Shown piece by piece: positions 6,191 through 58,423 of a stretch of DNA of 64,000 nucleotides (position 1 is its first letter; each line of letters starts with the position of its first letter). The DNA is taken from assembly GCA_964016885.1 (NCBI GenBank), contig OZ024741.1, forward strand, positions 104,656,001 to 104,720,000. The letters run 5' to 3'. The notes under the pieces were generated by a model, which worked only from the letters and a program-made list of their open reading frames with translations, was not told the DNA's origin and made no database searches. The translations under genes and the position numbers were made by a program. The stretch comes from Eledone cirrhosa. Lineage: Eukaryota.

Positions 6191-9063
6191 ATGTAGCAAC
6201 GTTAATGATAAACACAGCAACAACAACAACAACCAAAACAAGAAACATAATAAAAATAATAACCACAATGGTAGAAATAACAGTAACAACAACAATAACG
6301 GTGGAGAAAACAACAACAATACATCTAACAATCACAGCAACAATACATCTAGCAATCATAACAATAATAATAATGCTAATGATAGGAACAACAACAACAA
6401 CCACCATAATAACAATAATAGCAACACACACAACTACGACGATAGATATAATGACAACCCCTTAGAGAAACTATTCTTCAACCCAGCTGACAAAACATAT
6501 AAGATGGGTAATATCTATCCTACGAGGTTACCCTTTAATAAAAGGGTTTGTATACCACAACAAATAGATGACGAGACAGAGGCACAGTTCATCATAGCTA
6601 GAAATAAGATTAGACAAATAGTAGACCGGTTTACTAAGAGACAGAGCAGACCAGAGGTCCAACAACTTGGGAGGAAAACTGTAGAAGGCTTGGTTAGCCT
6701 CAAGCAGCGCACAAGGGATGGTGAGGTAGTATGTCTACCCACGGATAAGTCCGGTAGGATGTCAATAGACAGCATGCCGAACTACATCAAGGCTATGCAA
6801 CCCCACATCACCAACACGAGCGAAATTGCACAGCAAATACATGATGGGAGAGAGAAAATCCTCAACGCTCACATGATGATGTGGACCGACATCCTAAAGC
6901 CAAGCAGACGCACTGCCAATAACTTCCAGGCGTCTAACAATGGCATACCACCCTTGTATGGGCTCCGCAAAGACCATAAGACAGTCGACGACCCGACAAC
7001 AGGACCACCAACAAGACCTGTATGCGGAGCAAATATAGCTAGCAACTACAGGATCTCCTACTTCCTCTCAATGGTTATACGCCCCATAGTCAAGATGTCC
7101 CCAGATGTATGTGACAGTACAGAGGACCTCCTCAGCAGAATCAGTGAGTGCAACAAAAACCAAAACCTATCCAACTGCATAATAGGCAGTATGGATGTGG
7201 TGTCACTTACCCATTCATTAACATTGATTTTGCTGTGGAAAAATGTGTGGAGATGATCATTGAGAGTGAGGTGGAGTTCTGCGACGTCGACACAGACGAA
7301 CTGGGCCTCCTACTTAGACTTACCTACGACACTGACTACCTAGACAGCCATGACCTTAGACGTTTCTGCCCCAGTAGACCCAGAAGAGGTAGACCCCCCC
7401 CCCACCATAACGTCAATTGCAAAAAAGACTCCCATAGGAAGGTGGATTGGGTGGACCAAAAGCTATACGGACCCCCCCCCCAAAAAAAAAAAAAATGATT
7501 AGGTAAGAAAAATGGTCGCACATGCAATAGGGGCTAGTATCAAAACTATCCTAAAGGGCCACATATTCAAATTCAACGAGAAGATCTACACCCAAAATGA
7601 GGGAGCAGCCATTGGCGTCAGCATAGCTGGTAACGTTGCCAACCTTTTTATGGTATGGTGGGAAAAGAGACTCAAAGATTTTGATGAGAGCTCCATAGAC
7701 CTCATCATGTACTCTCGTTACGTAGACGACATCAATATAGTAATAAGGACATCCCCACAAGAGAGTACTAACAAGTTTGATTTAGAACGTAGCACAATGG
7801 AAAGCATCCAGCAGATAGCGAATTCCATACCCCAGAGTATAACTGTAACTATCGACTACCCTTCCAAACATCCTAACAATAGATTACCTGTATTAGACAC
7901 GGAACTCTGGAACACTATAGACGAGAGAGCCCAAATTCTCCACTCACACTATGCTAAACCCATGGCCTCCAAATACCTGATACTCAAAAACTCAGCAATG
8001 TCCAGTAGTGCTAAGTTTAATATTCTGATCGCAGACTTGGTACGAGTGATGAAGAACGTGTCCCGCATGTGCGACCCAACAGAAATGGAAAGACACATCC
8101 AACACTTCATCAACCGCATGCAGTTCTCTGGCTACAACCAAAGAGACAGAATCAGAGTATACGAAGGAGTCACGGAGAAGTATAGGACCCTCCTAAAACT
8201 GGACATGAAAGGAATTTTCCCATTATACAGGAGCAAATCATGGAATAGCTTAGATAGGACTAGACATAAGATAGGGAAAGCCACCTCATGGTACGACAAC
8301 CAGAGATACCAGAGTGTCATGTGTGTGGACGCTACCTCTGGGGGGAAATTAGCTAACCAGTGTAGAAAGGCCCTGAGAAAGACCCACTTAAAGATTAAGG
8401 TGGTAGAAAAGCCAAGAACCACCATAAAATCCCTGATCAGCAAAACCTACCCTTTTAAGAAAAGCCACTGTACTAATAGGAAATGTATTATATGTAAAGT
8501 AAACCCCCGGATAAACTGTAAAACTAGAAAGGTAGTCTATAGTATAAGAATTACAGAGAGTACTTGCAGAGAGATGACAACAACATACATAGGTGAGACA
8601 GCTCGTAGCATAGGTGAAAGGATAGACCAACACTGGGGGAACTAAAAGGACGAAAAAACGGTTCAGTCCTGTACGAACATGCCAGACAACAACACGACGG
8701 TAACATAGACAACATAGAAATTAGAATAATATCTAAACATAGAAATGACCCAGCAGATAGGCAAATCAGAGAGGCCAGGCTAAACAGAAAAAATGAATGG
8801 AATAACAACAACACCCAAACTAACAATACTGACCTAAGAGAAGTATAAATAAATACATACACAAGCACAATAACAACAAATACATATAAACACACACTAG
8901 TAAACTAAGATAGAATACAATAACCAATACACAGTCACCCAAACACGAACACACATCAAACACTATACACACACACGCAAACACATGCGCAGAGAAGACA
9001 AAAAAAAAATAAACAGACTAAATAAAGATGGCGTAGACATACAATAGAACAGGAGGAAACATA

Positions 9064-10731: not shown

Positions 10732-12468
10732 GGAGGAAGTTATAGTAGACTACATCAACTCCAGCCAGAACAACTTAAACTAAATAGATACGCCTTTAGC
10801 CTCGACGTTGTCTCCCTCTACACTACAGTCCCCGCTCATCCAGCTGTCGATTTATTGACGGACTGCGTGGTCGCAGAGGACATCCGCTGCTACGGTCTCC
10901 ATCCGACGGACATACACCAGCTTTTGTCCTTCACAGTGGACGACACGTACTTCACCTTCCACCACCACACATACAGACAGACAACAGCTAGAATGCCGAG
11001 CCCTCAACACCTGCCATTCCCATACCTTCTTCACCCGATATGTAGATGACATACTCATCCTTACATCATCCTGTGAGGAGGCGGATAAAATATACACGAT
11101 ATTCTCCAGCATGGACGCTAGTATAAAGTTCAGTATGGAACACCCCGATGACCGCGGATCCCTATCCCTACTGGACTTCCAACTCAGGGTAACAGAGGAA
11201 GGCAAGATCCACACCTGCTTCTATAAAAAAGCCGCCTGCAGGGACCTGTTCGTACATTTCAGATCGGCCCTCCCAGCCGGCGCTAAGTTCGGATACATAA
11301 GGAACGAATTAACACGTATCCGGAACAAATGCACTGACGTTAGAGACCGAGACACACACACCACACATTTCCTGGAAGTACTCAAACTTAACGGATACTC
11401 GACGTCCACCACGAACCGTGCCAGAAAGAACAGAGGACACCACACTCGAGGCACTAACACCTGCTTCCTGAAGCTCCCACACTTCAGTGACGAAACAACA
11501 ACAGCCATCCGCAGAGCTATCAGACGAGAGGGACTAGATATCCAACTAGCCCACTCGGGACCTTCTGTACGCGGACAGCTAACCAAAATACACTCCACCA
11601 GACATGTCAGCCGCTGCAGGCTAGCCAACTGCCCCATCAACGACACAGACCTATGCCACCAGGCTTACGTCGTATACAGATTAGAGTGCGACAAATGCAG
11701 CAACTTCTACGTAGGTAGTACCACCAGGCCACTTCACATAAGAATAAAAGAACACCTCAATACTAACGCTTCCTCATTTAAGAAACACCTAGTGAAATGC
11801 AAAAACACCGACAAAACATAACAGTTAGGATAGAAACTAAGGAAAGAAACCTCGGCAATCTTAGAATTAAGGAAGCACTGATTATAGACAAAACACAACC
11901 ACCAATCAATAATAGACTAGAACTCAACACCCAATTTATAACTTGATAGAGCACCTAGCCCCACACTTACACCCCCTTCTCACGCACACACACAAACACA
12001 CACACACGCGCTTACACTTCCACTTATTCTCTCTCACACACACATACACACACACAGACCAGGTTTAACATGATAGAGCATCTAGCCCCCACATTTACGT
12101 ATAGACATATCTTCTCACACTCACACACACATACTTACGCCTTCACGTATTCTCCCACACACTTAAACATACATGTACAAAACCCCTTTTAAAGGGAGAC
12201 TACTCTTTATCCACCTAACCTTCACTCTTTGACATTAGAGATAGAACAGAATCTCTATACCATTTCCTGTCAGCATGACTTGGCAAGCTATTTAGAACGC
12301 TGGTTTAACCACTTTACTTCCCTCCGAAGAAGAGATATTATCTCGAAAATTAAGGATGTTTAAATAAATTTAAGGTAAAAGACTAATTGTCAACAATATC
12401 TTTTGCATTTGCATTTATATTCTATATCCATACCTGCATTGTTTTGGCCTTACAACTACAAACGTTTA
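10732..12468 (+). mobile_element. 5'-truncated Penelope/Poseidon-type PLE (family C), RT + GIY-YIG pseudogene, CA-rich 3' region with HHR variant
   Basis: LDVVSLYT (~10800), RYVDDI (~11036), SIKFSME, LSLLDF, FYKK, VVYRLECDKCSNFYVGSTTRPLHIRIKEH. Confidence 0.88.
12321..12355 (+). ncRNA. Minimal hammerhead variant (CCGAAGA core)
   Basis: CCT-CCGAAGA-A-GAGATA-T-TATCTC-GAAA-ATT-A-AGG; palindromic AATT stem III; U4>C change in the core. Confidence 0.5.
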
Positions 12469-15731: not shown

Positions 15732-15901
15732 ATATATATTGTTATACTTTGGGAGGGTCATGTTGCCAATAAGAAACACACGCACCAGTTGCTTTCACTT
15801 CAATTTATTATATATTTATAAATTTATAAATTTACAAATTTACAAACTTATAAATTTATGGTTGGTTGGTTGGTTCCACAACCAGATAGTTGTTTATATA
15901 T

Positions 15902-15946
15902 AGTCATAGTCCTTTCGTCACACACTCTGTAACCTCTTCAGTGACT
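15902..15946 (-). ncRNA. Type-I hammerhead (inverted pLTR copy)
   Basis: Reverse complement: AGTCA-CTGAAGA-G-GTTACA-GAGTG-TGTGAC-GAAA-GGAC-TA-TGACT. Confidence 0.8.
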
Positions 15947-17237
15947 GGGGATTCCTTTCTTCGTTTCTGTGCCTTTCCTTTCTTCTATCCTACGCCATTT
16001 TGTTTCTGTGTGTGTGTTGTGTGCTCAGTTTGCGCATGCGCCACATCCGGGTGTCTGTGTGTGTTTGTGTTCATTTATCTATTTGTTTATTTATTTATTT
16101 ATTTATTGTTGGTTGGTTGTTTGTTCTATGTGTGTGTGTGTTTTCATTTTGTCCTGTGTGTGTTTTCATTTTGTCCTTAATTGTAAGTTGTTTGTTCTAT
16201 GTGTGTGTGTGTTTTCATTTTGTATGCAGTTCTCTGGCTACAATCAGAGAGATAGAATCAGAGTGTATAAAGGAGCCAGAACCAAATGGGAAAAAATGGT
16301 AAATAATGAAATAAATGGGACCTGCCCCTTGTATAGGAGCAAATTTTGGAATAGAATAGAAAGAACTAGGAACAAGGCCAATAGAATAAACTCATGGTAT
16401 GATAGCAATAAATACCAGAGTGTAATGTTCATCAATACAACCCTTAGAGGCGAACTAGCCTACAAATTTAGAAGGGCCCTAAATAAACATAATCTCAATA
16501 TTAAGATAGTAGAAAGACCTGGTACCTCCGTAAAAACACTTATTAGCAAGACATACCCGTTCCAAAGACCCTCATGTGTAGATAAGAAATGTATAACCTG
16601 TAAAATAAGCCCCCATATTAACTGTAAAACTAGAAATGTAGTGTATAGCATAAGATGTACTGAAGGACAATGTAGAAACAAAAATATAGTGTACATAGGT
16701 GAGACAGCTCGTAGTATAGGGGAACGAATAAATGAACACTGGCGAGACCTCCAAGATAATAAAGAATCATCTGTGTTCTACCAACATGCTAAGATAGAAC
16801 ACAGGGGTAGATTAGAGAGCATATAAATAAAAATAGAATCCACACACAGAAAAGACGCAATGTTTAGGCAAATTACAGAGGCAGTAAGCATAAAAGAATT
16901 AAAACCAAAATTAAATAGAAAATATGAGTGGAACAGCAACATCACAACTTACAATTAAGGACAAAATGAAAACACACACACACATAGAACAAACAACTTA
17001 CAATTAAGGACAAAATGAAAACACACACAGGACAAAATGAAAACACACACACACATAGAACAAACAACCAACCAACAATAAATAAATAAATAAATAAACA
17101 AATAGATAAATGAACACAAACACACACAGACACCCGGATGTGGCGCATGCGCAAACTGAGCACACAATACACACACAGAAACAAAATGGCGTAGGATAGA
17201 AGAAAGGAAAGGCACAGAAACGAAGAAAGGAATCCCC

Positions 17238-17282
17238 AGTCACTGAAGAGGTCACAGAGTATGTGACGAAAGGACTATGACT
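17238..17282 (+). ncRNA. Type-I hammerhead in PLE pLTR
   Basis: AGTCA-CTGAAGA(17243)-G-GTCACA-GAGTA-TGTGAC-GAAA-GGAC-TA-TGACT; stems I and II perfect, minimal stem III. Confidence 0.85.
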
Positions 17283-17542
17283 ATATATAAACAACTATCT
17301 GGTTGTGGAACCAACCAACCAACCATAAATTTATAAGTTTGTAAATTTGTAAATTTATAAATTTATAAATATATAATAAATTGAAGTGAAAGCAACTGGT
17401 GCGTGTGTTTCTTATTAGCAACATGACCCTCCCAAAGTATAACAATATCGGTTTCAACACACGATTACAGATAAAGAATCTTGCTAAACAAATTCAGAAA
17501 CGAAATATATATATATTATTTTATGTGTATGTCTATCTATCT

Positions 17543-24137: not shown

Positions 24138-24674
24138 CTGTGTATGCACACACTCATACATGTACACACACTCATATATAAACACTCATACACATATACT
24201 CACATATACACACACACAAACACACATATATATACACACATACACACACACACATAAGGTAAAAGATAAGCATGAATGCATATAATTAGGGGAAAGAGGT
24301 ACTAACATTTAAATACTATAAAGCTAATTAAATATTCTAAATAGCAACTCACTATAATTCTATATAGAGTAACATTTGTTAGTACCCCTTTCCCCTAATT
24401 ATATGCATTCATGCTTATCTTTTACCTTTTAATATTTTAGCTCCCTTAGGTTTATGCGTTAATGACATTCACCTATCAATTTGACAATCCCTTTCTTCCT
24501 AATAGATTTTTTATGGCAACTCTGTTATTAACACCATTCAACCATTCCTTTTAAAGGGTCATGACCTCAACTGTTTCGTTGGTTTTCGCTTCTGTATCTT
24601 ATATCTTATATCCTGTATCTTATATCCTGCATCTTATATCTTATATCCTGTATCTTATATCTTATATCTTATAT

Positions 24675-24729
<55 letters not shown>

Positions 24730-24735
<6 letters not shown>

Positions 24736-25672
24736 GTTAAAAATGTACATCCACATATGTATACTGAAATACTAGTATGCATATGAATACACACACGTGT
24801 ACATATGTAGATGTACCGAGTTTTTCACTGGACACTTTACTGTGAGTGTTCAGCTAGTCTGTATGTAAACACACAGACAAACCGGTTTTTAGAGTCATAC
24901 TGGTTTTCGAGGAAACACCTTTCCTCTATTCTCCAGAAAGCCAGACAGGAATATTGGACTAGTTTCGATGTTGTTACATCTCATCAGCAATATTTACCTA
25001 TCCTCCGGCCTTTCTAGAGAATCGTAAAAGCACATATCGTTATATGCTTTTTCTATGAAAATTAGTAGTGGGCAGACTAATTTGCATAGAGCGTGAGTAC
25101 GTACCGGTTCAGCGGAGACGATAAAAACTTAATTGTTTAAGCATCAGTCATACAAAAGTGAGTTACAAACGAAACGAAATTTAATTTCGTTTCGTTATTT
25201 GTTTTTATCGTCTCCGCTGAACCGGTACGTACTCACGCTCTATGCAAATTAGTCTGCCCACTACTAATTTTCATAGAAAAAGCATATAACGATATGTGCT
25301 TTTACGATTCTCTAGAAAGGCCGGAGGATAGGTAAATATTGCTGATGAGATGTAACAACATCGAAACTAGTCCAATATTCCTGTCTGGCTTTCTGGAGAA
25401 TAGAGGAAAGGTGTTTCCTCGAAAACCAGTATGACTCTAAAAACCGGTTTGTCTGTGTGTTTACATACAGACTAGCTGAACACTCACAGTAAAGTGTCCA
25501 GTGAAAAACTCGGTACATCTACATATGTACACGTGTGTGTATTCATATGCATACTAGTATTTCAGTATACATATGTGGATGTACATTTTTAACTTAATTG
25601 TTTAAGCATCAGTCATACAAAAGTGAGTTACAAACGAAACGAAATTTAATTTCGTTTCGTTATTTGTTTTTA
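24730..25672 (+). mobile_element. Retrozyme-like element (465-bp unit) with an inverted 5' copy
   Basis: 24730-25126 is the exact reverse complement of 25202-25599; 80-bp direct repeat at 25128 and 25593; one HHR per arm; flanked by (TA)n. Confidence 0.82.
25335..25379 (+). ncRNA. Canonical type-I hammerhead ribozyme (mirror copy at ~24950-24994, minus strand)
   Basis: AATATTG-CTGATGA-GATGT-AACA-ACATC-GAAA-CTAG-TC-CAATATT; predicted cleavage after GUC at 25372. Confidence 0.93.
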
Positions 25673-25846
25673 TATATATATATATATATAAGATATAAGA
25701 TATAATTTTAGTCCAGAATTAGCCGTCGAAACGGCTTGAGCTCAGCCGTCGGGGTCCTACTCGTTCCTATTACCCACTCTACTACCCTAAGTATTGAGTA
25801 CTTTGGTGCGTTATGGTCCACCTGGTTCCTTACCACAACTCCTTCG

Positions 25847-25922
<76 letters not shown>

Positions 25923-26510: not shown

Positions 26511-28774
26511 CTACTGTACGTCTGTATACATATATGTATGTACGTATACATACTTATATTTAAGTAACAGCCGTGCTCAGAGTGAGAAATGAAATTTCGT
26601 TTCATTTTTTTCTATTTATCGTTTTCGGAGCCCCCGGCAGATTAACTCAATCGATATGCAAATTAGGCTGCTCATCCGTTAATATGCATAAGGAAAGTAT
26701 ATACTTTCAGACGTTCAATCATCTGGCAGGAAGGTATACGGTGCTGACGATAGCTACTAAGCTTGAAACTTGTACATCGTTCATTTGTCAGTGTTGAACA
26801 AAAGGGCAACGATGGTTGCTAAACACTGTACGGCTTAATTCGGGATGTTTGTTTACAAACAAACAGAGCATTATAATAAATACTCGGTAAATCCATACGT
26901 ACATATATATATGTGTGCATGTATGTATATATATATACATACTACCGTACATCTGTATACATATATGAATGTACGTATACATACTTATATTTAAGTAGCA
27001 GCCGTACTAAGAGAGACAAATGAAATTTCGTTTCATTTTTTCCATTTATCGATTTCGGTGCGCTCGGCCGATTAACTCACTCGATATGCAAATTATGCTG
27101 CTCAGCCGTTAAAATGCATATGGAAAGTATATACTTTCAAACGTTCAATCATCTGGCAGGAAGGTATACGGTGTTGACGATAGCTAATAAGCTTGATACT
27201 AGTACATCATTCCTTTGTCAGTGTTGAACAAAAGGCCAACGATGGTTGCTAAACACTGTACGGCTTAATTCGGGATGTTTGTTTACAAATGCTCGGTAAA
27301 TCCATACGTAGATATATATATGTGTGCATGTATGTATATATATACATACTACCGTACGTCTGTATACATATATGTATGTACGTATACATACTTATATTTA
27401 AGTAACAGCCGTACTAAGTGTGAGAAATGAAATTTCGTTTCATTTTTTTTCCATTTATCGTTTTGGGTGTGCCCGGCCGATTAACTTACTCGATATGCAA
27501 ATTATGCTGCTGAGCCGTTAATATGCATGAGGAAAGTATATACTTTCAGACGTTCAATCATCTGGCTGGAAGGCTTACGGTGCTGACGATAGCTAATAAG
27601 CTTGAAACTTGTACATCGTTCATTTGTCATTGTTGAACAAAAGGGCAACGATGGTTGCTAAACACTGTAGGGCTTAATTCGGGAAGTTTGTTTACAAACA
27701 AACCGAGCAGTATAATAAATGCTCGGTAAATCCATACGTACATATATATATGTGTGCATGTATGTATATACATACATACTACTGTACGGCTGTATACATA
27801 TATGTATGTACGTATACATACTTATATTTAAGCATCAGTCGTACTAAGAGTGGGAAACGAAATTTCGTTTCATTTTTTTCCATTTATCGTTTTCGTTGCG
27901 CCCGGCCGATTACCTCACTCGATATGCAAAATAGGCTGCTTAGCCATTAATATGCATAAGGAAAGTATATACTTTCAGACCTTCAATCATCTGGCAGGAA
28001 GGTATACGGTGCTGACGTAGCTAATAAGCTTGAAACTAATACATCGTTCCTTTGTCAGTGTTGAACAAAAGGGCAACAATCATTTATCGTTTTCGGTGCG
28101 CCCGGCCGATTAACTCACTCGATATGCCAATTATGCTGCACAGCCGTTAATATGCATATGATAAGTATATACTTTCAGACGTTCAATCATCTGGCAGGAA
28201 GGTATACAGTGTTGACGATAGCTAATAAGCTTGAAACTAGTACATCGTTCTTTGACAGTTTTGAACAAAGGGGCAACGATGGTTGCTAAACACTGTACGG
28301 CTTAATTCGGGATGTTTGTTTACAAATGCTCGGTAAATCCATACGTACATATATATGTGTGTGCATGTATGTATATACATACATACTACTGTACGTCTGT
28401 ATACATATATGTATGTACGTATACATACTTATATTTAAGCAACAGTCGTACTAAGAGTGGGAAACGAAATTTCGTTTCATTTTTTTCTATTTATCGTTTT
28501 GTGTGTGCCCGGCCGATTAAACTCACTCGATATGCAAATTAGGTTGTTTAGCCGTTAACATGCATAAGGATAGTATATACTTTCAGGCGTTCAATTATCT
28601 GGCAGGAAGGTATACGGTGCTGACGTAGCTAATAAGCTTGAAACTTGTACATCGTTCCTTTGTCAGTGTTGAACAAAAGGCCAACGATGGTTGCAAAACA
28701 CTGTAAGGCTTAATTCGGGATGTTTGTTTACAAACAAACCGAGCATTATAATAAATGCTCCGTAAATCCATACG

Positions 28775-28808
<34 letters not shown>

Positions 28809-29626
28809 CCTGTATGTATATATATATATACAACTGTACGTCTGTATACATATATGTATGTACGTATACATACTTATATTTAAGTAACAGCCGTATTAAG
28901 ATTGAGAAATGAAATTTCGTTTCATTTTTTTCCATTTATCGCTTTCGGTGCGCCCGGTCGATTAACTCACTCGATATGCAAATTAGGCTGCTTAGCCGTT
29001 AATATTCATAAGGAAAGTATATACTTTCAGACATTCAATCATCCCGCAGGAAGGTATACAGTGCTGACGATAGCTAATAAGCTTGAAACTTGTACATCGT
29101 TCATTTGTCATTGTTGAACAAAAGGGCAACGATGGTTGCTAAACACTGTACGGCTTAATTCGGGATGTTTGTTTACAAATGCTCGGTAAATCGATACGTA
29201 CATATACATATGTGTGCATGTATGTATATACATACATACTACTGTACGTCTGTATACATATATGTATGTACGTATACATACTTATATTTAAGCAACAGTC
29301 GTACTAAGAGTGGGAAACGAAATTTCGTTTCATTTTTTTCCATTTATCGTTTTGTGTGTGCCCGGCCGATTAACTAACTCGATATGCAAATTAGGCTGCT
29401 CAGCCGTTAATATGCATGAGGAAAGTATATACTTTCAGACGTTCAATCATTTGGCAGGAAGGTATACAGTGCTGACGATAGCTAATAAGCTTGAAACTTG
29501 TACATCGTTCATTTGTCAGTGTTGAACAAATGGGCAACTATGGTTGCTAAACACTGTACGGCTCAATTCGGGATGTTTATTTACAAACAAACCGAGCATT
29601 ATAATAAATGTTCGGTAAATCCATAC

Positions 29627-29697
<71 letters not shown>

Positions 29698-32508
29698 CAT
29701 GTATGCATATATATATACATACTACTGTACGTCTGTATACATATATGTATGTACATATACATACTTATATTTAAGTAACAGCCGTACTAACAGTGAGAAA
29801 AGAAATTTCGTTTCATTTTTTTTTCCATTTATCGTTTTGGGTGTGCCCGGCCGATTAACTCACTCGACATGCAAATTAGGCTGCTTAGCCGTTAACATGC
29901 ATAAGGATAGTATATACTTTCAGACCTTCAATCATCTGGCAGGAAGGTATACGGTGCTGACGTAGCTAATAAGCTTGAAACTAATACATCGTTCCTTTGT
30001 CAGTGTTGAACAAAAGGCCAACGATGGTTGCTAAACACTGTAAGGCTTAATTTGGGATGTTTGTTTACAAACAAACCGATCATTATAATAAATGCTCGGT
30101 AAATCCATACGTATATATATATATATGTGTGCCTGTATGTATATATATATATACAACTGTACGTCTGTATACATATATGTATGTACGTATACATACTTAT
30201 ATTTAAGTAACAGCCGTATTAAGATTGAGAAATGAAATTTCGTTTCTTTTTTTTCTCCATTTATCGCTTTCGGTGAGCCCGGTCGATTAACTCACTCGAT
30301 ATGCAAATTAGGCTGCTTAGCCGTTAATATTCATACGGAAAGTATATACTTTCAGACGTTCAATCATCTGGCAGGAAGGTATACGGTGCTGACGATAGCT
30401 AATAAGCTTGAAACTAGTACATCGTTCCTTTGTCAGTGTTGAACAAAAGGGCAACAACCATTTATCGTTTTCGGTGCACCCGGCCGATTAACTCACTCGA
30501 TATGGAAATTATGCTGATCAGCCGTTAATATCCATATGGAAAGTATATACTTTCAGACGTTCAATCATCTGGAAGGAAGGTATACAGTGCTGACGATAGC
30601 TAAAAAACTTGAAACTAGTACATCGTTCCTTTGTCAGTGTTGAATAAAAGGACAACGATGGTTGCTAAACACTGTACGGCATAATTCGGGATGTTTATTT
30701 ACAAACAAACCGAGCATTATAATAAATGCTCGGTAAATCCATACGTACAAATATATATGTGTGCAGGTATGTATATATATACATACTACTGTAAGTCTGT
30801 ATACATATATGTATGTACGTATCATATTATATTTAAGTAACAGCCGTACTAAGAGTGAGAAAAGAAATTTCGTTTCATTTTTCTTTCCATTTATCGTTTT
30901 GGGTGTGCCCGGCCGATTAACTCACTCGATATGCAAATTAGGCGGCTTAGCCGTTAACATGCATAAGGAAAGTATATACTTTCAGACCTTCAATCATCTG
31001 GCAGGAAGGCTTACGATGCTGACGATAGCTAATAAGCTTGAAACTAGTAAATCATTCCTTTGTCAGTGTTGAACAAAAGGCCAACGATGGTTGCTAAACA
31101 CTGTACGGCTTAATTCGGGATGTTTATTTACAAACAAACCGAGCATTATAATAAATGCTCGGTAAATCCATACGTACATATATATATATGTGTGCATGTA
31201 TATATATATATACTACTGTACGTCTGTATACATATATGTATGTACGTATACATACTTATATTTAAGCAACAGCCGTATTAAGAGTGAGAAATGAAATTTC
31301 GTTTCATTTTTTTTCCATTTATCGCTTTCGGTGCGCCCGGCCGATTAACTCACTCGATATGCAAATTAGGCTGCTTAGCCGTTAATATGCATAAGGAAAG
31401 TATATACTTTCAGACGTTCAATCATCTGGCAGGAAGGTATACGGTGCTGACGATAGCTAATAAGCTTGAAACTAGTACATCGTTCATTGTCAGTGTTGAA
31501 CAAAAGGGCAACGATGATTGCTAAACACTGTACGGATTAATTCGCGATGTTTGTTTACAAATGCTCGGTAAATCCATACGTACATATATATATGTGTACA
31601 TGTATGTATATACATACATACTACTGCACGTCTGTATACATATATGTATGTACGTATACTTACTTATATTTAAGTAACAGCCGTACTAAGAGTGGGAAAC
31701 GAAATTTCGTTTCATTTTTTTTCATTTATCGTTTTCGGTGCGCCCGGCCGATTAACTCACTCGATATGCAAAATAGGCTGCTTAGCCGTTAATATGCATA
31801 AGGAAAGTATATACTTTCAGACGTTCAATCATCTGGCAGGAAGGTATACGGTGCTGACGATAGCTAATAAGCTTGAAACTAGTACATCGTTCCTTTGTCA
31901 GTGTTGAACAAAAGGGCAACAACCATTTATCGTTTTCGGTGCGCCCGGCCGATTAACTCACTCGATATGCAAATTAGGCTGCTCAGCCGTTAATATGCAT
32001 ATGACACGTATATACTTTCAGACGTTTAATCATCTGGCAGGAAAGTATACGGTACTGACGATAGCTAATAAGCTTGAAACTAGTACATCATTCCTTTGTC
32101 AGTGTTGAACAAAAGGGCAACGCTGGCTGCTAAACACTGTACGGCTTAATTCGGGATATTTGTTTACAAACAAACCGAGCATTATAATTAATGCTCGGTA
32201 AATCCATACGTACATATATATATATATGTGCGTGCATGTATGTATATATATACATACTACTGTACGTCTGTATACATATATGTATGTACGTATACATACT
32301 TATATATAAGTAACAGCCGTACTAAGAGTGGGAAACGCAATTTCGTTTCATTTTTTTCCATTTATCGTTTTCTGTGCGCCCAGCCGATTTACTCACTCGA
32401 TATGCAAATTATGCTGCTCAGCCGTTAATATGCATAAGGAAAGTGTATACGTTAAGTAACAGCCGTAGTAAGAGTGAGAAATGAAATTTCGTTTCATTTA
32501 TTTCCATT
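26511..32508 (+). repeat. Tandem array of HHR-bearing monomers (non-LTR retrozyme-like), 15 HHR motifs
   Basis: ACGGTG-CTGACGA-TAGCT-AATA-AGCTT-GAAA-CTAG-TA-CATCGT recurs at 26744, 27174, 27583, 28012, 28212, 28620, 29064, 29472, 29957, 30389, 30590, 31019, 31447, 31854 and 32055. Confidence 0.9.
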
Positions 32509-32510
32509 TA

Positions 32511-32559
<49 letters not shown>

Positions 32560-35931: not shown

Positions 35932-38900
35932 GTTGGTGGTGGTGTCGTTGTTGTTGTTGGTGGTGTCGTTGTTGTTGGTGGTGTCGTTGTTGGTGGTGGT
36001 GTCTTTGTTGGTGGTGGTGTCTTTGTTGTTGTTGGTGGTGTCGTTGTTGTTGTTGGTGGTGTCGTTGTTGTTGGTGGTGTCGTTGTTGGTGGTGGTGTCG
36101 TTGTTGTTGGTGGTGTCGTTGTTGTTGTTGGTGGTGTCGTTGTTTTTAGTGGTGTCGTTGTTGTTGTTGGTGTCGTTGTTGGTGGTGGTGTCGTTGTTGT
36201 TGGTGGTGTCGTCGTTGTTGTTGGTGGTGTCGTTGTTGGTGGTGGTGTCGTTGTTGGTGGTGTCGTTGTTGTTGGTGGTGGTGTCGTTGTTGGTGGTGGT
36301 GTCGTTGTTGCTGGTGTCGTTGTTCGTGGTGGTGGTGTCGTTGTTGGTGGTGGTGTCGTTGTTGTTGTTGGTGGTGTCGTTGTTGGTGGTGTCGTTGTTG
36401 TTGGTGGTGTCTTTGTTGGTGGTGGTGTCGTTGTTGTTGGTGGTGTCGTTGTTGGTGGTGTCGTTGTTGTTGGTGGTGTTGTTGTTGGTGGTGGTGTCGT
36501 TGTTGTTGGTGGTGTCGTTGTTGGTGGTGGTGTCGTTGTTGTTGGTGGTGGTGTCGTTGTTGTTGGTGTCGTTGTTGTTGGTGGTGTCTTTGTTGGTGGT
36601 GGTGTCTTTGTTGGTGGTGGTGTCGTTGTTGTTGGTGGTGTTGTTGTTGTTGGTGGTGTCGTTGTTGTTGGTGGTGTCGTTGTTGTTGGTGGTGTCGTTG
36701 TTGTTGGTGGTGTCGTTGTTGTTGGTGGTGTCGTTGTTGTTGGTGGTGTTGTTGTTGTTGGTGGTGTCGTTGTTGGTGGTGGTGTCGTTGTTGTTGGTGG
36801 TGTCGTTGTTGTTGGTGGTGTTGTTGTTGTTGGTGGTGTCGTTGTTGTTGGTGGTGTTGTTGTTGTTGGTGGTGTTGTTGTTGTTGGTGGTGTCGTTGTT
36901 GTTGTTGGTGTCGTTGTTGTTGGTGGTGGCGTTGTTGGTGGTGGTGTCGTTGTTGTTGGTGGTATCGTTGTTGGTGGTGGTGTCGTTGTTGTTGGTGGTG
37001 TTGTTGTTGTTGGTGGTGTCGTTGTTGTTGTTGTTGGTGTCGTTGTTGTTGGTGGTGGCGTTGTCATTGTTGGTGGTGTCGTTGTTGTTGGTGGTGTCGT
37101 TGTTGTTGTTGGTGTCGTTGTTGTTGGTGGTGTCGTTGTTGTTGGTGGTGTCGTTGTTGGTGGTGTCGTTGTTCGTGGTGGTGGTGTCGTTGTTGTTGCT
37201 GGTGGTGTCGTTGTTTGTAGTGGTGTTGTTGTTGTTGGTGGTGTCGTTGTTGGTGGTGGTGTCGTTGTTGGTGGTGTCGTTGTTGTTGGTGGTGGTGTCG
37301 TTGTTGTTGGTGGTGTCGTCGTTGTTGGTGGTGTCGTTGTTGTTGTTGGTGGTGTCGTTGTTTTTAGTGGTGTCGTTGTTGTTGTTGGTGGTGTCGTTGT
37401 TGTTGGTGGTGTCGTTGTTGTTGTTGGTGGTGTCGTTGTTGTTGTTGTTGGTGGTGTCGTTGTTTTTGGTGGTGTCGTTGTTGGTGGTGGTGTCGTTGTT
37501 GGTGACGGTGTCGTTGTTGTTGGTGGTGTCGTTGTTAGTGGTGTCGTTGTTGGTGGTGGTGTCTTTGTTTGTAGTGGTGTCGTTGTTGTTGGTGGTGTCG
37601 TTGTTGTTGGTGGTGTTGTTGTTGTTGGTGGTGTCGTTGTTGTTGGTGGTGTCGTTGTTGTTGGTGGTGGTGTCGTTGTTGTTGTTGGTGGTGTCGTTGT
37701 TGTTGGTGGTGTCGTTGTTGTTGTTGGTGTCGTTGTTGGTGGTGGTGTCGTTGTTGTTGGTGGTGTCGTCGTTGTTGTTGGTGGTGTCGTTGTTGGTGGT
37801 GGTGTCGTTGTTGGTGGTGTCGTTGTTGTTGGTGGTGGTGTCGTTGTTGGTGGTGGTGTCGTTGTTGCTGGTGTCGTTGTTCGTGGTGGTGGTGTCGTTG
37901 TTGGTGGTGGGGTCGTTGTTGTTGTTGGTGGTGTCGTTGTTGGTGGTGTCGTTGTTGTTGGTGGTGTCTTTGTTGGTGGTGGTGTCGTTGTTGTTGGTGG
38001 TGTCGTTGTTGGTGGTGTCGTTGTTGTTGGTGGTGTTGTTGTTGGTGGTGGTGTCGTTGTTGTTGGTGGTGTCGTTGTTGGTGGTGGTGTCGTTGTTGTT
38101 GGTGGTGGTGTCGTTGTTGTTGGTGTCGTTGTTGTTGGTGGTGTCTTTGTTGGTGGTGGTGTCTTTGTTGGTGGTGGTGTCGTTGTTGTTGGTGGTGTTG
38201 TTGTTGTTGGTGGTGTCGTTGTTGTTGGTGGTGTCGTTGTTGTTGGTGGTGTCGTTGTTGTTGGTGGTGTCGTTGTTGTTGGTGGTGTCGTTGTTGTTGG
38301 TGGTGTTGTTGTTGTTGGTGGTGTCGTTGTTGGTGGTGGTGTCGTTGTTGTTGGTGGTGTCGTTGTTGTTGGTGGTGTTGTTGTTGTTGGTGGTGTCGTT
38401 GTTGTTGGTGGTGTTGTTGTTGTTGGTGGTGTTGTTGTTGTTGGTGGTGTCGTTGTTGTTGTTGGTGTCGTTGTTGTTGGTGGTGGCGTTGTTGGTGGTG
38501 GTGTCGTTGTTGTTGGTGGTATCGTTGTTGTTGGTGGTGTCGTTGTTGTTGGTGGTGTTGTTGTTGTTGGTGGTGTCGTTGTTGTTGTTGGTGTCGTTGT
38601 TGTTGGTGGTGGCGTTGTCATTGTTGGTGGTGTCGTTGTTGTTGTTGGTGGTGTCGTTGTTGTTGTTGGTGTCGTTGTTGTTGGTGGTGTCGTTGTTGTT
38701 GGTGGTGTCGTTGTTGGTGGTGTCGTTGTTCGTGGTGGTGGTGTCGTTGTTGTTGCTGGTGGTGTCGTTGTTTGTAGTGGTGTTGTTGTTGTTGGTGGTG
38801 TCGTTGTTGGTGGTGGTGTCGTTGTTGGTGGTGTCGTTGTTGTTGGTGGTGGTGTCGTTGTTGTTGGTGGTGTCGTCGTTGTTGGTGGTGTCGTTGTTGT

Positions 38901-41900
38901 TGTTGGTGGTGTCGTTGTTTTTAGTGGTGTCGTTGTTGTTGTTGGTGGTGTCGTTGTTGTTGGTGGTGTCGTTGTTGTTGTTGTTGGTGGTGTCGTTGTT
39001 TTTGGTGGTGTCGTTGTTGGTGGTGGTGTCGTTGTTGGTGACGGTGTCGTTGTTGTTGGTGGTGTCGTTGTTAGTGGTGTCGTTGTTGGTGGTGGTGTCT
39101 TTGTTTGTAGTGGTGTCGTTGTTGTTGGTGGTGTCGTTGTTGTTGGTGGTGTTGTTGTTGTTGGTGGTGTCGTTGTTGTTGGTGGTGTCGTTGTTGTTGG
39201 TGGTGGTGTCGTTGTTGTTGTTGGTGGTGTCGTTGTTGTTGGTGGTGTCGTTGTTGTTGGTGGTGTCGTTGTTGTTGGTGGTGTCGTTGTTGTTGGTGGT
39301 GTCGTTGTTTGTGGTGTCGTTGTTGTTGTTGGTGGTGTCGTTGTTGTTGGTGGTGTCGTTGTTGTTGTTGGTGGTGTCGTTGTTGGTGGTGGTGTCGTTG
39401 TTGGTGGTGGTGTCGTTGTTGTTGGTGGTGTCGTTGTTGTTGGTGGTGTCGTTGTTGTTGGTGGTGGTGTCGTTGTTGTTGTTGGTGTCGTTGTTGTTGG
39501 TGGTGTCGTTGTTGTTGGTGGTGTCGTTGTTGTTGTTGGTGGTGTCGTTGTTGTTGGTGGTGTCGTTGTTGTTGTTGGTGGTGTCGTTGTTGTTGGTGGT
39601 GTCGTTGTTGTTGGTGGTGTCGTTGTTGTTGGTGGTGTCGTTGTTGTTGGTGGTGGTGTCGTTGTTGTTGGTGGTGTCGTTGTTGTTGGTGGTGTCGTTG
39701 TTGTTGTTGGTGGTGTCGTTGTTGTTGGTGGTGTCGTTGTTGTTGTTGGTGGTGTCGTTGTTGTTGGTGGTGTCGTTGTTGTTGGTGGTGTCGTTGTTGT
39801 TGGTGGTGTCGTTGTTGTTGGTGGTGGTGTCGTTGTTGTTGGTGGTGTCGTTGTTGTTGGTGGTGTCGTTGTTGTTGGTGGTGTCGTTGTTGTTGGTGGT
39901 GGTGTCGTTGTTGTTGTTGGTGTCGTTGTTGTTGGTGGTGTCGTTGTTGTTGGTGGTGTCGTTGTTGTTGGTGGTGTCGTTGTTGTTGGTGGTGTCGTTG
40001 TTGTTGTTGGTGTCGTTGTTGTTGTTGGTGGTGTCGTTGTTGTTGGTGGTGTCGTTGTTGTTGTTGGTGGTGTCGTTGTTGTTGGTGGTGTCGTTGTTGT
40101 TGGTGGTGTCGTTGTTGTTGGTGGTGTCGTTGTTGTTGGTGGTGGTGTCGTTGTTGTTGGTGGTGTCGTTGTTGTTGGTGGTGTCGTTGTTGTTGGTGGT
40201 GTCGTTGTTGTTGGTGGTGGTGTCGTTGTTGTTGTTGGTGTCGTTGTTGTTGTTGGTGGTGTCGTTGTTGTTGGTGGTGTCGTTGTTGTTGGTGGTGTCG
40301 TTGTTGTTGGTGGTGTCGTTGTTGTTGGTGGTGTCGTTGTTGTTGGTGGTGGTGTCGTTGTTGTTGTTGTTGGTGTCGTTGTTGTTGGTGGTGTCGTTGT
40401 TGTTGGTGGTGTCGTTGTTGTTGGTGGTGTCGTTGTTGTTGGTGGTGTCGTTGTTGTTGTTGGTGTCGTTGTTGTTGTTGGTGGTGTCGTTGTTGTTGGT
40501 GGTGTCGTTGTTGTTGTTGGTGGTGTCGTTGTTGTTGGTGGTGTCGTTGTTGTTGGTGGTGTCGTTGTTGTTGGTGGTGTCGTTGTTGTTGGTGGTGTCG
40601 TTGTTTGTGGTGTCGTTGTTGTTGTTGGTGGTGTGGTTGTTGTTGGTGGTGTCGTTGTTGGTGGTGGTGTCGTTGTTGTTGGTGGTGTCGTTGTTGTTGG
40701 TGGTGGTGTCGTTGTTGGTGGTGGTGTCGTTGTTGTTGTTGGTGGTGTCGTTGTTGTTGGTGGTGTCGTTGTTGTTGTTGTTGGTGGTGTCGTTGCTGTT
40801 GTTGGTGGTGTCGTTGATGGTGGTGGTGTCGTTGTTGTTGTTGGTGGTGTCGTTGTTGTTGTTGGTGGTGTCGTTGTTGTTGGTGGTGTCGTTGTTGTTG
40901 TTGGCGGTGTCGTTGTTGTTGTTGGTGGTGTTGTTGTTGTTGGTGGTGTCGTTGTTGTTGGTGGTGTCGTTGTTGTTGTTGTTGGTGGTGTCGTTGCTGT
41001 TGTTGGTGGTGTCGTTGATGGTGGTGGTGTCGTTGTTGTTGTTGGTGGTGTCGTTGTTGTTGTTGGTGGTGTCGTTGTTGTTGGTGGTGTCGTTGTTGTT
41101 GTTGGTGGTGTTGTTGTTGTTGGTGGTGTCGTTGTTGTTGGTGGTGTCGTTGTTGTTGGTGGTGGTGTCGTTGTTGTTGTTGGTGGTGTCGTTGTTGTTG
41201 GTGGTGTCGTTGTTGTTGGTGGTGTCGTTGTTGTTGGTGGTGTCGTCGTTGTTGGTGGTGTCGTTGTTGGTGGTGGTGTCGTTGTTGTTGGTGGTGGTGT
41301 CGTTGTTGTTGTTGGTGGTGTCGTTGTTGTTGGTGGTGTCGTTGTTGGTGGTGGTGTCGTTGTTGTTGTTGGTGGTGTCGTTGTTGTTGTTGGTGGTGTC
41401 GTTGTTGTTGGTGGTGTCGTTGTTTGTGGTGTCGTTGTTGTTGTTGGTGGTGTCGTTGTTGTTGTTGGTGGTGTCGTTGTTGTTGTTGGTGGTGTCGTTG
41501 TTGTTGTTGGCGGTGTCGTTGTTGTTGTTGGTGGTGTCGTTGTTGTTGGTGGTGTCGTTGTTGTTGGTGGTGGTGTCGTTGTTGGTGGTGTCGTTGTCGT
41601 TGTTGGTGGTGTCGTTGTTGTTGGTGGTGTCGTTTTTGTTGTTGGTGGTGTGGTTGTTGTTGTTGGTGTCGTTGCTGTTGGTGTCGTTGTTGTTGGTGGT
41701 GTCGTTGTTGTTGTTGGTGTCGTTGTTGTTGGTGGTGTCGTTGTTGTTGTTGGTGTCGTTGTTGTTGTTGGTGTCGTTGTTGTTGGTGGTGTCGTTGTTG
41801 TTGTTGGTGTCGTTGTTGTTGGTGGTGTCGTTGTTGTTGGTGGTGTCGTTGTTGTTGTTGGTGTCGTTGTTGTTGGTGGTGTCGTTGTTGTTGTTAGTGG

Positions 41901-44900
41901 TGTCTTTGTTGTTGGTGGTGTCGTTGTTGTTGGTGGTGTCGTTGTTGTTGTTGGTGGTGTCATTGGTGGTGGTGGTGTCGTTGTTGTTGTTGGTGGTGTC
42001 GTTGTTGTTGGTGGTGTCGTTGTTGTTTGTGGTGTCGTCGTTGTTTATGGTGGTGTCGTTGTTGTTGGTGGTGTCGTTGTTGTTGGTGGTGTCGTTGTTG
42101 TTGTTGGTGGTGTCGTTGTTGTTGGTGGTGTCGTTGTTGTTGGTGGTGGTGTCGTTGTTGTTGGTGGTGGTGTCGTTGTCGTTGTTGGTGTCGTTGTTGT
42201 TGGTGGTGGTGTCGTTGTTGGTGGTGTCGTTGTTGTTGTTGGTGTCGTTGTTGTTGTTGGTGGTGTCGTTGTTGTTGTTGGTGTCGTTGTTGTTGTTGTT
42301 GGTGGTGTCGTTGTTGGTGGTGGTGTCGTTGTTGTTGGTGTCGTTGTTGTTGTTGGTGTCGTTGTTGTTGTTGGTGGTGTCGTTGTTGTTGTTGGTGTCG
42401 TTGTTGTTGTTGGTGGTGTCGTTGTTGGTGGTGGTGTCGTTGTTGTTGTTGGTGTCGTTGTTGTTGTTGGTGGTGTCGTTGTTGTTGGTGGTGGTGTCGT
42501 TGTTGTTGGTGTCGTTGTTGTTGTTGGTGTCGTTGTTGGTGGTGGTGTCGTTGTTGTTGGTGGTGTCGTTGTTGTTGTTGGTGTCGTTGTTCGTGGTGGT
42601 GGTGTCGTTGTTGGTGGTGGTGTCGTTGTTGTTGGTGGTGGTGTCGTTGTTGGTGGTGGTGTCGTTGTTGTTGTTGGTGGTGTCGTTGTTGTTGGTGGTG
42701 TCGTTGTTGTTGTTGTTGGTGGTGTCGTTGCTGTTGTTGGTGGTGTCGTTGATGGTGGTGGTGTCGTTGTTGTTGTTGGTGGTGTCGTTGTTGTTGTTGG
42801 TGGTGTCGTTGTTGTTGGTGGTGTCGTTGTTGTTGGTGGTGTCGTTGTTGTTGTTGGTGGTGTCGTTGTTGTTGTTGGTGTCGTTGTTGTTGTTGGTGGT
42901 GTCGTTGTTGTTGGTGGTGGTGTCGTTGTTGTTGTTGGTGTCGTTGTTGTTGTTGGTGGTGTCGTTGTTGTTGGTGGTGGTGTCGTTGTTGTTGGTGTCG
43001 TTGTTGTTGTTGGTGTCGTTGTTGGTGGTGGTGTCGTTGTTGTTGGTGGTGTCGTTGTTGTTGTTGGTGTCGTTGTTGGTGGTGGTGGTGTCGTTGTTGG
43101 TGGTGGTGTCGTTGTTGTTGGTGGTGGTGTCGTTGTTGGTGGTGGTGTCGTTGTTGTTGTTGGTGGTGTCGTTGTTGTTGGTGGTGTCGTTGTTGTTGTT
43201 GTTGGTGGTGTCGTTGCTGTTGTTGGTGGTGTCGTTGATGGTGGTGGTGTCGTTGTTGTTGTTGGTGGTGTCGTTGTTGTTGTTGGTGGTGTCGTTGTTG
43301 TTGGTGGTGTCGTTGTTGTTGGTGGTGTCGTTGTTGGTGGTGGTGTCGTTGTTGTTGTTGGTGGTGTTGTTGTTGTTGGTGGTGTCGTTGTTGTTGGTGG
43401 TGTCGTCGTTGTTGGTGGTGTCGTTGTTGGTGGTGGTGTCGTTGTTGTTGGTGGTGTCGTTGTTGGTGGTGGTGTCGTTGTTGTTGTTGGTGGTGTCGTT
43501 GTTGTTGTTGGCGGTGTCGTTGTTGTTGTTGGTGGTGTCGTTGTTGTTGTTGGTGGTGTTGTTGTTGTTGGTGGTGTCGTTGTTGTTGGTGCTGTTGTCG
43601 TTGTTGGTGGTGTCGTTGTTGGTGGTGGTGTCGTTGTTGTTGGTGGTGTCGTTGTTGGTGGTGGTGTCGTTGTTGTTGTTGTTGGTGTCGTTGTTGTTGT
43701 TGGTGGTGTCGTTGTTGTTGGTGGTGTCGTTGTTTGTGGTGTCGTTGTTGTTGTTGGTGGTGTCGTTGTTGTTGTTGGTGGTGTCGTTGTTGTTGGTGGT
43801 GTCGTTGTTTGTGGTGTCGTTGTTGTTGTTGGTGGTGTCGTTGTTGTTGTTGGTGGTGTCGTTGTTGTTGTTGGTGGTGTCGTTGTTGGTGGTGGTGTCG
43901 TTGTTGGTGGTGGTGTCGTTGTTGGTGGTGGTGTCGTTGTTGGTGGTGTGGTTGTTGTTGGTGGTGTCGTTGTTGGTGGTGGTGGTGTCGTTGTTGGTGG
44001 TGGTGTCGTTGTTGTTGGTGGTGTCGTTGTTGGTGGTGGTGTCGTTGTTGGTGGTGTCGTTGTTGTTGGTGGTGTCGTTGTTGGTGGTGGTGTCGTTGCT
44101 GTTGTTGGTGGTATCGTTGATGGTGGTGGTGTCGTTGTTGTTGTTGGTGGTGTCGTTGTTGTTGTTGGTGGTGTTGTTGTTGTTGGTGGTGTCGTTGTTG
44201 TTGGTGGTGTCGTTGTTGTTGTTGGCGGTGTCGTTGTTGTTGTTGGTGGTGTCGTTGTTGTTGTTGGTGTCGTTGTTGTTGTTGGTGGTGTCGTTGGTGG
44301 TGGTGGTGTCGTTGTTGTTGGTGGTGTCGTTGTTGTTGTTGGTGGTGTCGTTGTTGTTGTTGGTGTCGTTTTTGTTGTTGGTGGTGTGGTTGTTGTTGTT
44401 GGTGTCGTTGTTGTTGGTGGTGTCGTTGTTGTTGGTGGTGTCGTTGTTGTTGTTGGTGTCGTTTTTGTTGTTGGTGTCGTTGTTGTTGTTAGTGTCGTTG
44501 TTGTTGTTAGTGGTGTCTTTGTTGTTGGTGGTGTCGTTGTTGTTGGTGGTGTCGTTGTTGTTGTTGGTGGTGTGGTTGTTGTTGTTGGTGTCGTTGTTGT
44601 TGGTGGTGTCGTTGTTGTTGGTGGTGTCTTTGTTGTTGTTGGTGGTGTGGTTGTTGTTGTTGGTGTCGTTGTTGTTGTTGGTGTCGTTGTTGTTGTTGGT
44701 GGTGTCTTTGTTGTTGGTGGTGTCGTTGTTGTTGGTGGTGTCGTTGTTGTTGGTGGTGTCGTTGTTGTTGTTGGTGGTGTCGTTGTTGTTGGTGGTGTCG
44801 TTGTTGTTGTTGGTGGTGTCGTTGTTGTTGTTTGTGGTGACCTTGTTGTTGGTGGTGTCGTTGTTGTTGTTGGTGGTGTCTTTGTTGTTGGTGGTGTCGT

Positions 44901-47900: not shown

Positions 47901-48690
47901 GTTGTCGTTGTTGGTGGTGTCGTTGTTGTTGTTGGCGTTGTCATTGTTGGTGGTGTCGTTGTTGTTGTTGGCGCTGTTGTTGGTGGTGGTGTCGTTGTTG
48001 GTGGTGGTGTCGTTGTTGTTGGTGGTGTCGTTGTTGTTGGTGGTGGTGTCGTTGTAGGTGGTGGTGTCGTTGTTGTTGGTGGTGTCGTTGTTGTTGGTGG
48101 TGGTGTCGTTGTTGGTGGTGGTGTCGTTGTTCATAGTGGTGTCGTTGTTGTTGTTCGTGGTGTCGTTGTTGTTGGTGGTGTCGTTGTTGTTGGTCTGTGT
48201 CGTTATTGGTGGTGGTGTCGTTGTTGTTGGTGGTGTCGTTGTTGTTTTTGGTGGTGTCGTTGTTGGTAGTGGTGTCGTTGTTGGTGGTGGTGTCGTTGTT
48301 GTTGGTGGTGGTGTCGTTGTTGGTGGTCGTGTCGTTGTTTATAGTGGTGTCGTTGTTGTTGTTGGTGGTGTCGTTGTTGGTGGTGGTGTCGTTGTTGGTG
48401 GTGGTGTCGTTGTTGGTAGTGGTTTCGTTGTTGGTGGCGGTGTCGATGGTGGTGATGTTTATTGGCATTGATGTTGGTGATAATGGTAGTGTCATCATTG
48501 TTGATGTGTAGTTAGTGGTGGTGCTTTATTGTTTGTGTTTGTGGTTAATGTCATTATTATAGTTGTTGATGGTGTTAGTATAGTTAATGCTGGTAGTGTC
48601 GTCATCGTTGTTGCTGGGGGTGGTGTCGTTGTTGTTGTTGGGTTGGTCATCGTTGGTAGTGATGGTGTCTCATCGTTGTTGTTATTTAAC
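35932..48690 (-). repeat. 12.7-kb compound trinucleotide repeat GTC(GTT)2-5(GGT)1-4; reads as a Pro/Thr mucin-like tract on the minus strand (coding status unproven)
   Basis: Direct reading; 2039-aa PTT ORF at 35844-41963(-); TAA stops in the Pro/Thr frame at ~42045 and 44925, frame slip at ~45485; degenerate beyond ~48420. Confidence 0.95.
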
Positions 48691-57702: not shown

Positions 57703-57820
57703 TTATTTGTCAGTGTTGAACAAAAGGGCAACGATGGCTGCTAAACATTGTATGGCTTAATTCGGGATGTCTGTTTACAAACAAACCGAGCATTATAATA
57801 AATGCTCGGTAAATCCATAC

Positions 57821-57867
<47 letters not shown>

Positions 57868-58417: not shown

Positions 58418-58423
<6 letters not shown>
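57703..58423 (+). repeat. Dispersed ~1.6-unit copy of the retrozyme-like monomer (HHR degenerate at 58123)
   Basis: Same monomer as 26511-32508; CTGACGA intact but GAAAC changed to AAAAA. Confidence 0.88.

Follow-up and report, generated by a model that had tools for sequence, protein, structure and literature searches.

A young hammerhead-repeat insertion in Eledone cirrhosa with the end geometry of Penelope-like elements

How does a repeat that putatively encodes no protein come to lie head to head with an inverted copy of itself inside a run of (TA)n, and what kind of enzyme put it there? The question is raised by an insertion at positions 24730-25673 of a 64,000-nucleotide stretch of Eledone cirrhosa DNA (GCA_964016885.1, contig OZ024741.1, positions 104,656,001 to 104,720,000 of the forward strand), which we call the window and in which the insertion is flanked by TA runs on both sides. 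The initial annotation had described a 465-bp unit with part of a next unit, preceded by an inverted copy of about 400 bp, all within (TA)n, and had linked this hammerhead repeat, a retrozyme, to the machinery of Penelope-like elements (PLEs). The observation is real and was correctly described apart from corrections that concern the ribozyme stems, stem III and the ages of two families. Its features, with unit positions counted from 25126 (u1), are these:

24677 to 24729: (TA)n target, left
24730 to 25128, minus strand: inverted arm of 399 bp (u76-u465, then u1-u9), 3' end outward, at the short initiation site
24950 to 24994, minus strand: mirror hammerhead within the inverted arm (HH9 match 24935-25005, minus strand)
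25126 to 25128: head-to-head junction with 3-bp microhomology
25126 to 25590, plus strand: full 465-bp retrozyme unit, family A
25241 to 25252, plus strand: TATGCAAATTAG, a U6/RNase MRP-like motif and the 5' strand of a predicted hairpin
25335 to 25379, plus strand: type I hammerhead with a palindromic 2-bp stem III, predicted to cleave after 25372 (GUC)
25591 to 25673, plus strand: start of the next unit (83 bp), which stops at the long site; a PLE-type tail with a 13-bp hairpin at about 25600-25673
25674 to 25691: (TA)n target, right

Read as its reverse complement, the left arm (399 bp) runs from u76 round to u9, and it mirrors a right arm that runs from u1 through u83 of the next unit (548 bp, the 465-bp unit plus 83 bp). 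The arms thus represent 0.86 and 1.18 turns of the unit, overlap by 3 bp and have zero mismatches; 24725/24730-25128 and 25201-25604 are 100% complementary over 404 nt, TA overlap included, and the 83 nt form a direct repeat at a spacing of 465. None of the listed public-run contig pieces spanned the focal junction.

The hammerhead lies where it had been annotated, with its GUC site, and was found by the Rfam model HH9 (E 4.7e-6) with a score of 34.2 bits; the gathering score is 52, and no match anywhere in the window reached it. Rfam miRNA matches were rejected as noise from TA-rich hairpins. Stem III (ACUAGU) has 2 bp and a 2-nt loop and is not scorable as a monomer fold, and we therefore predict that the ribozyme is a type I hammerhead of the dimer-dependent metazoan type; for the palindromic form of stem III, a second copy is required for efficient cleavage (PMC4209133, passages covered). 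Stems I and II had been said to differ completely from those of a neighboring array and still to pair. Both sides have changed in 6 of the 14 hammerhead pairs, a count that is descriptive only because the seven sequences are related; however, three of the seven stem I pairs never vary, and two of the five stem II pairs are common to the focal copy and the array, so the stems differ in part. The core has been conserved, stem II shows a compensatory change within family A, and 211 hammerhead pattern matches occur across the family-A loci examined, each short tandem unit having one type I hammerhead. The unit is predicted to fold at −158.9 kcal/mol (z −11.4 against 100 shuffles) and the circular unit at −154.4 kcal/mol.

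The array in question belongs to a second family:

26511 to 32512, plus strand: array of the older sister family B, with units of about 408-450 bp; its right end is at the homologous long site, then (TA)n

The family A unit aligns over its full length with the array unit, with homology z scores of 24.7 for the whole unit, 15.8 upstream of the ribozyme, 10.7 downstream and 4.5 downstream without the TA-rich part; none of 500 shuffles reached any observed score, so the proposed collinearity beyond the ribozyme core is significant on both sides. The focal copy had been called a recent, diverged sister of the array. Its recency is upheld, but it is the array that represents the older family: the best copies of family A are 98-100% alike, and the best other copies of family B are mostly 84-95% alike. 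The family A unit search of the 3.0-Gb genome gave 825 candidates, of which the best 40 were scored, the top ones at 98-100% identity. Exact pattern matches numbered at least 2,048 for long-end/TA junctions and 7,297 for internal sites genome-wide and 842 for short-end junctions on the forward strand alone, the reverse count being inflated by repeat matches. Family A is thus dispersed in many copies, and no LTR structure was seen in the mapped loci. As separate observations on family B, a second copy at 57706-58423 ends at the long site and is followed by (TA)n and then by a short-ended PLE-B arm, and three array units (28080, 30455 and 31920) break at one point, b253 being joined to b55, which gives 201-bp periods.

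The ends of insertions were mapped at 56 family-A loci, made up of 39 distinct loci from the unit search and 17 picked pattern matches, which is not a random sample. One array of about 60 units (C1:95.655-95.685 Mb) was excluded, its ends being out of view; it has a 6-unit and 12-unit higher-order repeat and looks like a satellite in the making. The 56 loci held 57 insertions, of which 47 were inverted, 8 were single-armed and 2 were cut at the locus edge, so that 47 of the 55 complete insertions were inverted. Outward 3' ends fell into two classes about 70 nt apart, short (u463 to u15) and long (u78-83). Inverted insertions had one short and one long end in 43 of 47 cases and one other end in the remaining 4, with no long-long and no short-short pair, and the single-armed insertions were divided into four short and four long. 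Either arm can be the longer one, and arm length in family A ranges from 55 bp to more than 7 kb. Inner ends, 102 in all, are spread uniformly over the unit (Rayleigh p 0.52), and among 44 loci the arms overlap (28), abut (1) or are separated by extra bases (15). Family B uses the homologous two sites, with short and long ends in 11 of 12 inverted loci (21 loci examined, read by eye). The expectation that copies begin at random points is therefore borne out by the inner junctions and contradicted by the outer ends, which are fixed at two sites. Fixed termini had been regarded as MITE-like. That view fails here, as the outer ends are fixed yet asymmetric, and fixed outer ends are here the mark of a PLE; a MITE or DNA transposon was rejected, with no symmetric terminal inverted repeats and no fixed internal length. 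The arms run through the cleavage site, and a linear monomer template with 5' ends at the ribozyme cut was likewise rejected (3 ends observed near the site versus 2.4 expected). A Pol III terminator at the long end was not adopted: the T5 at u77-81 agrees with one in family A, whereas in family B the long end falls about 10 nt past the T run.

The same asymmetry is found in the PLEs of this genome, two of which have insertions in the window:

1071 to 2759: PLE family A insertion, with a long-ended inverted head and a short-ended main arm; neither arm contains the other
15736 to 17506: PLE family B insertion, with a short-ended inverted head, a long-ended main arm and a 59-nt tail

PLE-A ends lie 24-26 nt or 69-84 nt into the ORF, with one short end earlier, and the target is (TA)n. 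Short and long ends were paired in all 5 PLE-A loci with both ends visible (14 loci examined) and in 5 of 6 PLE-B loci, the exception (L194) being long-long with identical flanks on both sides. One PLE reverse transcriptase (RT) is known to initiate at two sites within the RNA, and these define the tail; the protein cuts and extends both strands and is a predicted dimer (PMC11167929). In PLE insertions the tail is often confined to a single end, and an inverted, 5'-truncated copy is present (PMC8557442, passages covered). The one-short-one-long ends of the host PLEs are this published "tail." Targets in (TA)n, head-to-head arms and the short/long end rule are common to both retrozyme and both PLE families tested, in agreement with the proposed match between the focal inverted head and the PLE insertions at 1071-2759 and 15736-17506. 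Tail lengths are about 69-79 nt in retrozyme family A, about 61 nt in retrozyme family B, 43-58 nt in PLE-A and 59 nt in PLE-B. A likeness between the short sites of retrozyme and PLE (TAAC..AT, then TGTTT) was noticed post hoc.

Open frames of at least 1,200 aa hold about 85 of the 150 PLE-A matches that were scored (hand count). A 1,210-aa PLE-A protein has a weak RT match (RVT_1, E 3.7e-5) and PLE-B a GIY-YIG match (E 3.9e-4), both below the Pfam cut-off; Pfam gave no match when searched with the complete 1,210-aa protein or with the C-terminal part of it, and RT matches in a PDB search were only weak. The PLE-A protein has a CX4CxxC motif ahead of its C-terminal endonuclease region, which, by the passages covered of PMC8557442, points to the Neptune/Nematis type. 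In a PLE-A ORF (L102:3754-7383) the RT is also preceded by a long region rich in asparagine, which resembles the N-rich inserts of Penelope elements in rotifers (PMC3846280, passages covered), and in both PLE families a minimal hammerhead-like motif was seen by eye in the pLTR (2519-2570 and about 17240-17285).

When compared with the pLTRs and tails of PLE-A and PLE-B, neither retrozyme family showed significant homology (z −1.4 to 1.6; two PLE families), so the geometry points to the kind of enzyme and not to a family. Derivation from a pLTR, as a non-autonomous PLE of that type, is not supported by the two PLE families compared, given the lack of homology to their pLTR or 3' end. We conclude that it is PLE machinery that, very probably, moves the retrozyme, which would work like a non-autonomous PLE.

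For at least part of the family, the template of this machinery was probably circular. Three insertions consist of identical units over both arms (15/15 in L165, 14/14 in L166 and 16/16 in L198-199), and their haplotypes are all distinct, differing by 8 changes each. A two-variant marker of L165 has 16 matches in the assembly, all 16 of them within L165; the equivalent marker of L166 defines a subfamily of 618 matches and is therefore not private. Repeated reading of one monomer circle would be the simplest account of these three insertions. The main alternative, which we consider improbable, is that PLE machinery acts on linear multimeric read-through RNA, that arrays grow at the DNA level by unequal crossing-over and conversion and that the hammerhead is incidental to mobility. 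Several arrays are heterogeneous and of higher order, as this would predict: among the further arrays (14 taken, 13 scored for unit identity), 19 of 29 units are distinct in one (L201-202) and 10 of 13 in another (L200). Periods of 3 to 5 units occur at four other loci (L035, L045, L047 and L048). Two loci have an identical commonest unit, which makes array-to-array copying possible, hammerhead mutants had no effect on PLE insertion in vitro, where uncut RNA was the main substrate (PMC11167929), and local tandem amplification is favored in bioRxiv 10.64898/2026.07.22.740005. However, a linear template would require for L165 an unseen homogeneous parent of at least 11 units, although the marker is confined to L165; oppositely oriented arms are not readily equalized by unequal crossing-over; and the hammerhead core is kept, with the compensatory stem II change. 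Two loci do not fit a single monomer circle, L213-214, in which one arm has period 3 and the other has 9 of 10 units identical, and L004, in which the arms have no match in register. Heterogeneous and periodic arrays could stem from multimeric circles, which are expected because the ribozyme is dimer-dependent, or from later expansion at the DNA level.

It had been proposed that at the focal site a PLE RT copied slightly more than one turn of a circular template. The end rule upholds a PLE-type insertion; the circle is inferred, best at the three loci with identical units, and the focal copy is only consistent with it. At u18 the focal insertion has the same uncommon base at both tandem positions, a pattern weakly consistent with a circular template. 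As a private focal marker, this base was rejected, since it recurs 88 times genome-wide, probably through CpG decay. A self-closing contig of 495/496 nt, one each in public runs X4 and X5, was not counted as a circle, since tandem DNA loops alike.

The pairing of the arms raises a further question, that of how the second arm arose. At 14 of 44 loci, a locus-private variant was common to both arms, compared to a mean of 0.25 and a maximum of 3 in shuffled pairings, which implies one template or source for both arms unless they were converted later; such common variants could result from gene conversion between arms. On balance, we favor independent priming of both arms on RNA from one molecule or source. 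That the inverted arm is instead a secondary copy of the first, made by snap-back, by L1-style twin priming at a random site or by later rearrangement, seems very unlikely to us. The focal short arm is contained in the long one, the focal arms are identical and private variants are shared between arms, all as a secondary copy would have it, and self-priming has been proposed for PLE palindromes (PMC3846280, passages covered). Nevertheless, the arms end at different fixed sites and either may be the longer, and in the PLE at 1071-2759 neither arm contains the other; the retrozyme arms of L177 are likewise non-nested, but by at least 7 nt only. Mobilization by a LINE or by a DNA or rolling-circle transposon (SINE-, MITE- or Helitron-like), or an assembly artifact, is scarcely credible: the retrozyme has no homology to the PLEs compared, LINE-like RT fragments lie within the window and target-site duplications are unreadable inside (TA)n, but ends of this asymmetric, two-site kind are held to be unique to PLEs (PMC11167929), the two ends do not form inverted repeats, junctions differ among thousands of loci and public-run contigs contain 10 other left/right-arm joints, read as inverted junctions of other loci, although run X1 may be the assembled sample.

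Mobility would begin with transcription, and the best-conserved block between families A and B outside the ribozyme is the 12-nt motif at 25241-25252. Host U6 genes, both two single ones and those of the cluster type, have TATGC(A/T)AAT(T/G)AG at −76 to −78; in one cluster variant an insertion has displaced it. Host RNase MRP has the same motif at −77. The chance of the motif is about 3e-4 per unit, with a background of 1 match in 285 kb. A TATA-like run in the unit lies 41-42 nt downstream of the motif versus 46-48 nt in the host genes, which is about 5 nt too close, and the unit has four T4-T5 runs that may be Pol III stops. The motif also forms a predicted hairpin, and it carries two changes in the subfamily with 618 matches. 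A U1/U2-type promoter was rejected, the motif being absent in the 130 nt upstream of 16 distinct U1/U2 copies. We hold only tentatively, and with more doubt than belief, that the motif may work as a promoter element. Newt satellite 2 is reportedly similar in this respect, as Coats, Zhang and Epstein are said to have described in 1994 a snRNA-type promoter motif upstream of the hammerhead in that repeat. The unit described here is likewise a hammerhead repeat with a motif of snRNA-gene promoters upstream; unlike in newt satellite 2, this putative promoter is of the U6/MRP (Pol III) type and not that of U1/U2 upstream regions. Among the host genes themselves, U6 and RNase MRP promoters combine the motif at about −77 with a TATA at −30 (L080-L091, L197 and L109-L128), U1 and U2 have in common a TCAGT near −55 and a TATA-like run near −30, and in the U6 cluster on C19 (L086, L087 and L091) a SINE-like insertion parts the promoter motif from U6 in some copies.

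Taken as a whole, the focal element is a young insertion of a putatively non-coding hammerhead repeat, a non-LTR retrozyme, likely placed in (TA)n by a PLE RT-endonuclease, with circular RNA as the likely template. Tandem copies would be transcribed, and their hammerheads would cleave as dimers, freeing monomers or small multimers, which would then be ligated into circles. Both strands of (TA)n would be cut by a PLE protein, and the free 3' ends would each prime reverse transcription on sense RNA, with the short site as the start for one and the long site for the other. The enzymes would then each roll round the template until they stall, and the two cDNAs would be joined via microhomology or a few added bases into a head-to-head palindrome. 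A stricter version of this scheme is possible but doubtful: two PLE RTs, one on each side of a double-strand cut, would copy a single RNA circle from two fixed sites about 70 nt apart, and the retrozyme, instead of being a pLTR relic, would be an independent parasite made up of a promoter of the U6 type, a hammerhead and a sequence that mimics the signal at which PLEs start. If true, the double copying would account in a single step for three features of PLEs: the inverted arm, the tail on one side and the tandems.

Other elements in and near the window were also observed. A very abundant element of about 145 bp lies in (TA)n at 25706-25847 and recurs in L045, L048, L095, L102, L107, L139, L146 and other loci, where it often forms tiny palindromes, head to head, in which one end is short and the other long, with a tail of about 78 nt; it represents a further family with PLE geometry, and no parent was found in the loci examined. 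In the left flank, at 24420-24600 (minus strand), AGAAGCGAAAACCAAC is shared with the pLTR of PLE-A, and this flank may represent the terminus of a further PLE-related element. At 10859-11821 lies a fragment of another PLE type with RT/GIY-YIG, and at 4330-6201 there are LINE-like RT frames in minus orientation. A 12.5-kb array of an 18-bp GT-rich unit occupies 35932-48445, with a smaller array at 58744-59610.

On every sequence feature compared, the focal element fits the non-LTR retrozymes. Those of coral, mussel and amphibians (axolotl/newt satellite 2) are likewise tandem, low-GC, putatively non-coding units with one type I hammerhead each and are highly self-paired, and those of amphibians also have a short, dimer-requiring stem III (PMC7229834, passages covered). 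The unit is longer here, 465-470 nt versus 170-400 nt, and RNA circles have been shown for the retrozymes of that paper and are only predicted here. A link between retrozymes and PLEs is already proposed in print. PLEs are named strong candidate mobilizers in the same passages of PMC7229834, with circle-templated tandem cDNA; the word "inverted" is absent from its main text, and fixed two-site ends are not described in the passages covered. Dependence of retrozymes on PLEs is also the conclusion of bioRxiv 10.64898/2026.07.22.740005, where it rests on co-occurrence and on homology to pLTRs (known transposable elements, nearly all of them PLEs, were matched by 24 of the 57 Xenopus families), whereas the evidence here is insertion geometry, with no pLTR homology to the two PLE families compared.

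Insertions of EN+ PLEs are similar in their head-to-head inverted 5'-truncated arm, one-end tail, AT-rich or microsatellite target and partial tandems (PMC3846280 and PMC8557442, passages covered), as is Poseidon PAc in vitro, with two internal RT start sites (PMC11167929). Unlike EN+ PLEs as described in those passages, the retrozyme is putatively without an ORF, has a tail of about 70 nt versus 30-40 nt and has up to 30 units per arm, and the one-short-one-long rule has been counted here (43/47). The non-autonomous PLEs of Chlamys (such as MRC1) are non-coding elements driven by PLE proteins, and like the retrozyme they are multicopy and inserted head to tail; however, such elements generally resemble an autonomous partner at the 3' end, and their clade is mostly without canonical hammerheads (PMC8557442, passages covered). 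Within what were largely open-access main texts, we found no published account of cephalopod retrozymes or of the ends of retrozyme insertions, and none in which such insertions are said to have PLE-type tails, inverted arms or signs of roll-round copying.

These results bear on the enzyme that moves animal retrozymes, on whether circles are real templates and on the origin of the inverted, one-tailed insertions of PLEs. The genome offers a resource of thousands of young insertions with a rule that can be counted, numerous intact PLE ORFs and, as a candidate substrate, a 465-nt unit whose start sites are mapped. In combination with the existing in vitro assay for PLEs, this resource makes the questions of mobilization testable.
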